Below the pieces are notes generated by a model. It saw only the letters and a list, made by a program, of their open reading frames with translations, was not told where the DNA came from and did not search any database. DNA of 42,729 bases from a virus. Where the stretch lies: IMG/VR virus record IMGVR_UViG_3300002481_000002. One strand, written 5' to 3'. Positions 24,270-26,219 of this stretch are shown here, in pieces. Position 1 is the first letter of the stretch. Each line of letters begins with the position of its first letter. The translations under genes were made by a program, and so were the position numbers.

Positions 24270-25047
24270 TGTGGTAAAGTATAAAAGATATAAATTGGCA
24301 ATAATGTGGAGCGGAGGAATGGATACAACGATAGCATATTATTATGCGTTAGACAGTGGCTATAAGAACGACGATATAGTGATGATACATGTTGATATTG
24401 GACAGCCATATGAGTGGAAAGAAAAGAATGCAATAGATATGATTAGAAGTGAAATTGGAGAAATGAATTATTTGGAGTTTAAGTTCAATTTGCTGAGAGA
24501 AGAGTTAAAGAATTTACCAACACCAGAAAAACAAGTGATACCAGGCAGGAATCTATTAATGGCATATGTGGGGAGTGTATTTGCTGATAGAGTATGGATA
24601 TGTGCTTTGGATGGAGAGATGCATAGGTATATGACGGACAAGAATCATACATTTTTTGAATTGGCGTCGGGAGTATTGAGTTATGTGATGGATAGAGATA
24701 TTATTGTAGAAACACCTTTTAAAGAGATGAGTAAGAGTGAAATTGCAAAATGGTTTGTAGATTTATTGGGAAGAGAAAAGGCACAGAAGGTCTTGGATAA
24801 AACAGTAACTTGTTATGACGAGAGGAACTGGGCATGTGGAGAGTGTAGTACATGTTTTAAGAGATGGGTGGCGTATGTAAATGCTGGGTTAAATTGGAGA
24901 AAGTACTGGAAAGTAAATCCCAGAGAGAGTGAGGTAGCAAGAGATTTAATAAAGAGATATGAAGAAGCAAAGAGAAAGAAAGATTTTAGTCATTATTCAG
25001 AAAAGAGGATAATGGAGACATTGAGAGCGTTGGAGGTGAGTGAATGA
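24253..25047 (+). CDS. queC: 7-cyano-7-deazaguanine (preQ0) synthase
   Basis: SGGMDTT, IPGRNL, TPF..MSK, TCY and CGECSTC..R motifs. Confidence 0.9.
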   Translation: MSIWDSVVKYKRYKLAIMWSGGMDTTIAYYYALDSGYKNDDIVMIHVDIGQPYEWKEKNAIDMIRSEIGEMNYLEFKFNLLREELKNLPTPEKQVIPGRNLLMAYVGSVFADRVWICALDGEMHRYMTDKNHTFFELASGVLSYVMDRDIIVETPFKEMSKSEIAKWFVDLLGREKAQKVLDKTVTCYDERNWACGECSTCFKRWVAYVNAGLNWRKYWKVNPRESEVARDLIKRYEEAKRKKDFSHYSEKRIMETLRALEVSE

Positions 25048-26219
25048 TAATATTTTTGGCTGGGGCGGAGGCATTTGTAAAATTAATGAAGAGTGTCAAG
25101 CCATATTCAGTATTAGTATCGTTTTATTATATTAATCAACAGAAGAATTTTAACATGGCAGATTTTGAAGGAATGAGAGTGTTTGTAGATAGTGGTGGGT
25201 TTACTTTTAGAACAAAACATAAAGTTGATAGTGTGCCAGAAAGTTATATAAGAGAGTATGGAGAGTGGATTAAAGAGAACGAAGATTATATTTTTGCTTA
25301 TGCGAATGTTGATGTGTTAGATGTGGATGAAAGTAAGAAAAATATGAAAATTTTAGAGAACGAATATGGCTTATCGCCATTGCCGGTGTGGCATTATGGA
25401 GAGTCTTATGATATACTAAAAGAGTATTGCGAGACATATGATTATGTGTGTTTAGGAGGATTTGCAGGGAGTGGGGCAGACAGAAGTGTGTTGGAACAGA
25501 GAATAGTTAATACTTTGAGAAAGGCAAGGAGCTACAACGAAGGTGTTAAGTTGCATGTGTTTGGTTATACGGCAAATTTTAGAAAGATTTCAACGATGGC
25601 GTATAGTTGTGATAGTACTGGATGGATAGAAAGTAAATATGGCGATATTTCATATTTCAAGAATGGTGAGATTGAGCGCTTTTATTGGAAAGACAACATA
25701 CCGAAATTGGTGGCGTTAGCGAGAGAGTATGAGTTAGATGAAAATGAAGTGAAGAAAGGAAAGGGTAAATTTTTGAATGAGATAACGGTGCGAGAGTGGA
25801 AGAAATTACAAGAGTATTACGAGAGGAAAGAGGTGGGAGATATGACAGAAAGAGTAGGGAGTTTTTGTTGCAAAATATGTCCGGTTGGAGTGAATTGTTC
25901 GGATTACGATGAAGAAGCGACAGAGTGTAAGTTAATAAAGAAAAAGATGGAGAGTATAGTCACAGACAATGTTTTAGAAGACACAATTAAGTATGTGATA
26001 GAGCAAAGATTAGAAAGATATATAAGAGCAAGAGTGTTTGAGGATTTGGAAGGAGGAATATTAGATAAACATGTCACGCAGTTGGAAGATGGAATAGCAA
26101 ACTTAATTGAGAAGTATCTGAAGTTAAAGTATCCAGAGCGATATGGTAATGTAAAAGTGATTGAAAAAGGAGTAAGTAAATGGGATGAGTTATTGAATGC
26201 ATTAGGTGAGGAGAAGTGA
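25044..26219 (+). CDS. dpdA: DpdA-like DNA-guanine transglycosylase (TGT fold) with C-terminal Cys-rich/helical domain
   Basis: FVDSGGF, YANVDV, PVWH, CLGG, LHVFG and SCDSTGW motifs in aa 1-266; embedded in the que cluster. Extension in aa 267-391. Confidence 0.75.
   Translation: MIIFLAGAEAFVKLMKSVKPYSVLVSFYYINQQKNFNMADFEGMRVFVDSGGFTFRTKHKVDSVPESYIREYGEWIKENEDYIFAYANVDVLDVDESKKNMKILENEYGLSPLPVWHYGESYDILKEYCETYDYVCLGGFAGSGADRSVLEQRIVNTLRKARSYNEGVKLHVFGYTANFRKISTMAYSCDSTGWIESKYGDISYFKNGEIERFYWKDNIPKLVALAREYELDENEVKKGKGKFLNEITVREWKKLQEYYERKEVGDMTERVGSFCCKICPVGVNCSDYDEEATECKLIKKKMESIVTDNVLEDTIKYVIEQRLERYIRARVFEDLEGGILDKHVTQLEDGIANLIEKYLKLKYPERYGNVKVIEKGVSKWDELLNALGEEK

Follow-up and report, generated by a model that had tools for sequence, protein, structure and literature searches.

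A single gene in the window analysed here (the whole 42,729-nucleotide stretch of viral DNA, IMG/VR record IMGVR_UViG_3300002481_000002) most likely encodes a small terminase subunit (TerS; aa 267–391) joined behind a DpdA transglycosylase that looks active. The gene runs from a barrel (aa 1–261) through a linker to a 125-aa domain that combines a four-cysteine (Cys4) motif with a helical hairpin, and its stop codon overlaps the GTG start of the terminase large subunit gene terL (GTGA, 26216–26219). An earlier reading of the DNA from its letters alone (the sequence-only reading) had described this C-terminal part with its cysteine motif and helices, together with the overlapping stop, and all of these elements were found in the sequence. 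The locus comprises the following features.

25044–26219, plus strand: dpdA–terS fusion gene (protein P0001), 391 aa, with five full-length homologues at 32–47% identity.
25044–25826, plus strand: TGT/DpdA barrel, aa 1–261, matching phrog_887 (E = 5.5e-40) and the fold of DpdA 7UI4.
25830–25835, plus strand: internal Shine–Dalgarno (SD) sequence GAGGTG, six bases before an ATG.
25842–25844, plus strand: internal in-frame ATG (M267) in the linker at the domain boundary; an SD–ATG lies at the same boundary in the relatives L001, L002 and L003.
25842–26219, plus strand: TerS-like domain (P0002), 125 aa, with 27 relatives, terL synteny and an AF2 pLDDT of 82.7.
25869–25928, plus strand: Cys4 knuckle, a putative metal site (C276-x2-C279-x5-C285-x9-C295), nearly invariant in alignment A6.
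25971–26129, plus strand: helical hairpin (aa 310–362), the putative oligomerization core, with helices of 26 and 21 residues joined at E333-x4-G338.
26175–26207, plus strand: C-terminal amphipathic helix of the AF2 model, a low-confidence candidate for a TerL-binding tail, as suggested by the TerS proteins of P22 and lambda (PMC9611059).
26216–28564, plus strand: terminase large subunit (Pfam, PHROG), with a 349-aa LAGLIDADG intein at aa 141–489.

The fusion is not an assembly artefact, given that five independent homologues (397–428 aa) share its layout; misassembly or loss of a stop codon was ruled out by the presence of the protein on five contigs from two sources as well as by these conserved fused homologues. 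The suggestion in the sequence-only reading that other phages carry similar extensions was borne out, as the fusion is conserved and is found in the cultured phages BCD7, GiJojo, BRock, Katyusha and TIN2 too. The TerL intein (26636–27682) lies just before the Walker B strand, and none of the seven aligned relatives that are complete or nearly so has it; in a TerL fragment from L020, an intein seems to begin at Walker A instead.

The barrel was modelled with high confidence, and the predicted structure matched TGTs with Z scores of 17.8–18.2 and DpdA 7UI4 with a Z score of 17.8 (r.m.s.d. of 2.9 Å over 248 aa). Residues D49, F53, D90 and D190 were invariant in the alignment of close relatives and, judging from motif and spacing, correspond to Asp95, Phe99, Asp130 and Asp256 of DpdA (7UI4), the roles of which have been described (PMC10164549). 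With these catalytic motifs intact, the barrel looks active. Because the barrel alone covers the whole TGT chain, the C-terminal extension is an added module; the Cys4 motif was likewise ruled out as the TGT zinc site or subdomain, the module also occurring as a free gene.

The window probably derives from an archaeal tailed virus, a host suggested by an ERCC4 nuclease (Pfam), PolB- and RadA-like open reading frames (ORFs; identified by eye) and GGTGA-type ribosome sites. Since it carries no terminal repeat, it may represent only part of the genome. By eye, a second LAGLIDADG-like ORF (7957–8706) was seen with the prohead protease gene on one side and the scaffold gene on the other, and at 34560–36901 a MoxR-like AAA ATPase was seen with a metallopeptidase–vWA-like protein after it. 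Directly upstream of the fusion gene lies a set of genes for preQ0 synthesis.

20984–24269, plus strand: remainder of the preQ0 operon outside queC (motifs, Pfam), which comprises the next six entries.
From 20984, plus strand: QueE, read from motifs, with a Pfam-labelled counterpart in L001.
21625–22323, plus strand: free-standing LAGLIDADG endonuclease (Pfam) within the operon.
From 22623, plus strand: QueD, read from motifs, with a Pfam-labelled counterpart in L001.
From 22991, plus strand: FolE, read from motifs, with a Pfam-labelled counterpart in L001.
From 23503, plus strand: PRTase (Pfam).
From 23952, plus strand: HAD-like protein of approximately 105 aa (Pfam).
24253–25047, plus strand: QueC (preQ0 synthase; PF06508, E = 7.5e-20), overlapping the dpdA start.

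Genes for 7-deazaguanine synthesis are encoded beside the barrel (QueC by Pfam; QueE, QueD and FolE by motif). Given the presence of QueC, and with neither QueF nor ArcS recognized beside it, dPreQ0 would be the expected product (on the basis of PMC10516641). The PRTase and HAD-like genes occupy 23503–24269 between FolE and QueC, and a PRTase with a similar-sized unlabelled ORF is found at the same position in L001 (6449–7200). Neighbourhoods vary among the other relatives. In L002 (707–3281), L003 (286–1017), L021 (1442–5942, with NTP-transferase and ADH genes in the same region) and L112 (932–2544), all of which have intact DpdA–TerS fusions, glycosyltransferase genes directly upstream replace QueC, a hint of sugar-hypermodified deazaguanines. 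A Vut_1/YhhQ-type queuosine-precursor transporter directly precedes dpdA in L018 (238–942; split form) and L027 (666–1352; fused form).

The C-terminal domain, which matches no family in Pfam or NCBIfam, is probably TerS. Its protomer of approximately 14.5 kDa (125 aa; 15–21 kDa was taken as typical of TerS) is predicted to have the hairpin core of the TerS plan; the hairpin (domain aa 44–96) was modelled by AF2 with pLDDT > 90 and is generic in fold, and its residues R325, E333 and G338 are invariant in alignment A6. The Cys4 knuckle is lost in P0004, P0018 and P0040, and L001 also lacks it. An N-[AG]-[VL]-K-[HT]-G motif, which we take to be one found in TerS proteins, is present in part of the family. 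Links to TerS families exist at the level of annotation (phrog_6902 through relatives; Gordonia Jumbo TerS, E = 0.037). As regards the structural comparison proposed with the sequence-only reading, the AF2 model contains the hairpin, and sequence and fold searches of the PDB returned only generic hairpins and no solved TerS. The ESM Atlas gave no useful match for the domain. [quoted passage not shown] The missing HTH counts against the TerS assignment made in the sequence-only reading, which was supported as the most likely one by gene order, by stand-alone and split forms and by co-variation with TerL.

A search of 1.84 billion proteins yielded 27 domain matches, about half fused to barrels and about half short. 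The domain lies directly upstream of terL in 16 of the 20 distinct loci in which it was found, with a 60-aa gene intervening in one more, in agreement with the synteny that the sequence-only reading had proposed as a check. The exceptions are BCD7 and GiJojo, in which a long distance separates the fusion from terL and an unassigned ORF of 107–121 aa lies near terL, and Bacteroides phage BS162P1, with no terL annotated nearby. Reciprocally, when searches started from TerL, the domain was upstream in five of the six closest lineages and a diverged Cys4 ORF in the sixth; the upstream slot of more distant TerLs is occupied by HTH-type genes, one of which matches Terminase_5. Within the window, which may be a partial genome, none of the 16 small ORFs scanned matched another TerS family, consistent with the earlier statement that terL has no other TerS candidate beside it.

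The domain also exists apart from the barrel. It stands alone before terL, without an upstream dpdA, in L007 and L037, whereas dpdA, the domain and terL follow one another as a natural split with an ATGA overlap in L018, and dpdA and the domain are adjacent separate genes in BS162P1. Only contig-verified stand-alone cases were counted because some such database entries are fragments; P0029, for example, was rejected because it is the end of the fusion protein of L036. The barrel is dispensable, since the stand-alone members do without it. Domain identity tracked that of TerL (rho = 0.72) rather than that of its own barrel (rho = 0.28; 11 fused loci, non-independent pairs). The barrel of L001 is 56% identical to that of the window yet sits on a different TerS/TerL lineage: the L001 TerL is 78–83% identical to those of L002 and L003, whose barrels are only 33% like the L001 barrel. 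This pairing of a window-type barrel with an L002/L003-type TerL indicates that a barrel exchange took place at the junction. Fused and stand-alone domains are intermingled in the domain tree, which is short and partly unresolved and gives no basis for counting fusion events. The viral-looking contigs L017 and L018 (identical to L022 and L023) were binned in two unrelated bacterial metagenome-assembled genomes from one Guaymas sample, so their host labels are unreliable.

The junction contains a candidate internal start. The in-frame ATG at 25842 behind GAGGTG, as noted in the sequence-only reading, is present and rare by chance: an SD match of at least 6 nt precedes 3 of the 208 internal in-frame ATGs in the genes of the window, and the SD:anti-SD pairing of −10.6 kcal/mol was equalled in 2% of control 30-codon windows. 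No other interior start of the fusion gene is as strong, and the site lies in a low-confidence linker (pLDDT < 50 at aa 263–272). In L001, L002 and L003, an SD–ATG (−10.5 to −11.5) is kept at the same boundary, again as the strongest interior start of each gene, although the linker residues differ. A synonymous-recoding test of the junction SD gave P values of 0.06–0.47, which fit selection and a relic ribosome-binding site alike, the linker residues largely fixing the SD. Twelve other fusions (L004, L019, L020, L021, L027, L028, L036, L051 and four from cultured phages) have either no SD–ATG or a weak one; the junction start is thus a lineage feature, and free TerS is not required by the family. 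On balance, we lean towards use of the start in the window, which would give a free TerS of approximately 14.5 kDa in addition to the fusion. The strongest internal SD of the window lies elsewhere (17635–17653): a perfect 9-nt sequence (GGAGGTGAT) precedes an ATG at 17651 that is in frame with the surrounding PolB-like gene (16103–18184).

Several fusions have barrels that appear dead. The DSG motif is lost but the fusion is kept in P0014–P0016, P0033 and L051, and the 447–465-aa proteins annotated as TerS in Tsukamurella phage TIN2 and Gordonia phage Katyusha also lack the motif. When these Gordonia and Tsukamurella proteins were compared with the fusion family by hhalign, a two-sequence alignment matched the C-terminal domain only, and a deeper alignment extended the match to 342 aligned columns (probability 96%, E = 2.7e-9). 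Their TerS labels are database annotations, for which we found no experimental support. No Que genes were seen in the visible flanks of the dead-barrel fusions L019, L028 and L051.

We propose that FolE, QueD, QueE and QueC make preQ0, which the barrel would, very probably, put in the place of G once viral DNA has been replicated. The hairpin domain would probably build a TerS ring and its tail bind or recruit TerL, and the internal start may well supply barrel-free TerS, such that only some ring subunits carry barrels. The fusion would most likely be used at packaging initiation and not during translocation; the barrel would add DNA binding to a TerS without an HTH, keeping the ring attached to late viral DNA, which the barrel would modify as well. 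A DNA-binding role of this kind would outlast catalysis, which could explain why dead barrels stay fused. The positions of the BCD7 and GiJojo fusions far from terL, the HTH-less domain, the stand-alone members, the 12 fusions with a weak or missing SD–ATG and the annotation-level status of the Gordonia and Tsukamurella TerS labels count against this model. As a whole, the model of an active DpdA–TerS fusion with the barrel as a DNA-binding head at packaging initiation stands at about even chances. A wider version, which we consider unlikely, is that a widespread HTH-less TerS family has the DpdA barrel as its DNA-recognition head: the barrel would write a 7-deazaguanine mark, the ring would read the mark or a target motif to choose the DNA that is packaged, the internal start would tune the number of barrels per ring, and elsewhere the barrel would be a catalytically dead reader. 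Were such a mark-reading ring real, base modification would be a packaging licence.

The main rival is that the fusion of two habitual neighbours is simply tolerated: a preQ0 operon would repeatedly land upstream of terS–terL, the dpdA stop would be lost, terS would keep its own ribosome-binding site and the two activities would remain independent. The overlapping or directly adjacent split genes of L018 and BS162P1, the intermingled tree and the swapped barrel are all in keeping with this explanation, as are the deazaguanine genes that lie upstream of the terminase without fusion in rosebushviruses (PMC10484667). At least three lineages, however, have kept a dead barrel through long divergence instead of deleting it; in most fusions, which lack a strong internal start, it must be the fused form that acts as TerS; and BCD7 and GiJojo keep the fusion away from terL. 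We regard tolerated fusion as possible, if rather unlikely.

The sequence-only reading had instead proposed that DpdA reaches the motor as part of mixed TerS rings and modifies DNA during translocation, sparing replicating and transcribed DNA. Such coupling is favoured by the intact barrel, the adjoining preQ0 genes, the likely TerS identity of the fused domain and the internal start, and 7-deazaguanine modification is post-replicative, with DpdA1-type levels that reach 30% (PMC10516641). As a rough estimate, the window contains approximately 16,400 G, and 10–30% substitution would take 1,600–4,900 exchanges within minutes by at most approximately 12 barrels. At usual packaging rates, the exchange rate required is far above TGT turnover. 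In addition, translocation can proceed in vitro without TerS, whose contact with TerL is often transient (PMC9611059), and neither dead barrels nor fusions far from terL would be explained. Together, the dead barrels and the rough kinetics argue against modification during translocation, which we consider improbable, and for a role in binding and initiation or a tolerated fusion. Least probable of all is that the domain is an accessory of DpdA (an oligomerization or Zn module) placed before terL by operon order: its inclusion in phrog_887, its association with dpdA rather than terL in BCD7, GiJojo and probably BS162P1, and its missing HTH would fit, but it occurs by itself ahead of terL in loci without an upstream dpdA and tracks TerL, and the barrel without it is already a whole TGT/DpdA fold, so that the Cys4 motif is not a TGT zinc subdomain.

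If the preferred assignment of the domain as TerS is right, a missing packaging subunit has been identified in several tailed viruses of archaea and bacteria, and some genes that are labelled as DpdA alone or TerS alone are fusions with two functions. To what is known, the locus adds an intact barrel accompanied by its operon, a start at the junction that relatives share, naturally split and free-standing versions, and evidence that modules were swapped where barrel and domain meet. The series of active, dead, split and stand-alone forms looks like the recycling of an enzyme as the DNA-binding part of a motor regulator. Given the TerS assignment, it also becomes testable at what point phage DNA gains 7-deazaguanine and whether modification and packaging selection are linked, and cultured carriers exist (BCD7, GiJojo, Katyusha and TIN2).

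Both parts are of known kinds, and the fusion recurs; a literature search, mainly of openly accessible papers, found no published description of a DpdA–TerS fusion. The two main DpdA papers (PMC6884629, PMC10516641) do not mention terminase, and the position of the rosebushvirus modification genes upstream of the terminase is the only such remark in PMC10484667. Like phage DpdA (DpdA1–4, PMC6884629 and PMC10516641; Salmonella Montevideo DpdA, 7UI4; phrog_887), the window protein has a TGT barrel with catalytic Asp motifs and FolE, QueD, QueE and QueC as neighbours, predicting dPreQ0, but it differs in its 125-aa Cys4–hairpin module with a start site of its own. It resembles phage TerS (PMC9611059) in the position of the gene directly before terL, a size of approximately 14.5 kDa, a predicted hairpin, a short stalk-like region and a C-terminal helix, and departs from it in having a Cys4 knuckle in place of the HTH, an enzyme fusion and no significant match to a solved TerS. 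The DNA-binding domain at the N terminus of TerS in the FtsK-gamma–TerS of Bacillus phage Sam46 (PMC8190038) is a parallel, in that case with a classical Terminase_2 domain and a non-enzymatic partner. Closer are the DpdA of Bacillus phage BCD7 (gp21) and its counterparts in Streptomyces phages GiJojo and BRock, which share the DSG-motif barrel and the same C-terminal domain; unlike the window protein, they have long linkers and no junction SD, are not adjacent to terL and are annotated only as transglycosylases. The long proteins annotated as TerS in Gordonia phages Katyusha and Demosthenes and Tsukamurella phages TIN2–4 (phrog_6902, phrog_16015) share the barrel, the Cys4 motif, the hairpin and the place directly before terL, and differ from the window protein in a barrel without the DSG motif and a junction without the SD–start.
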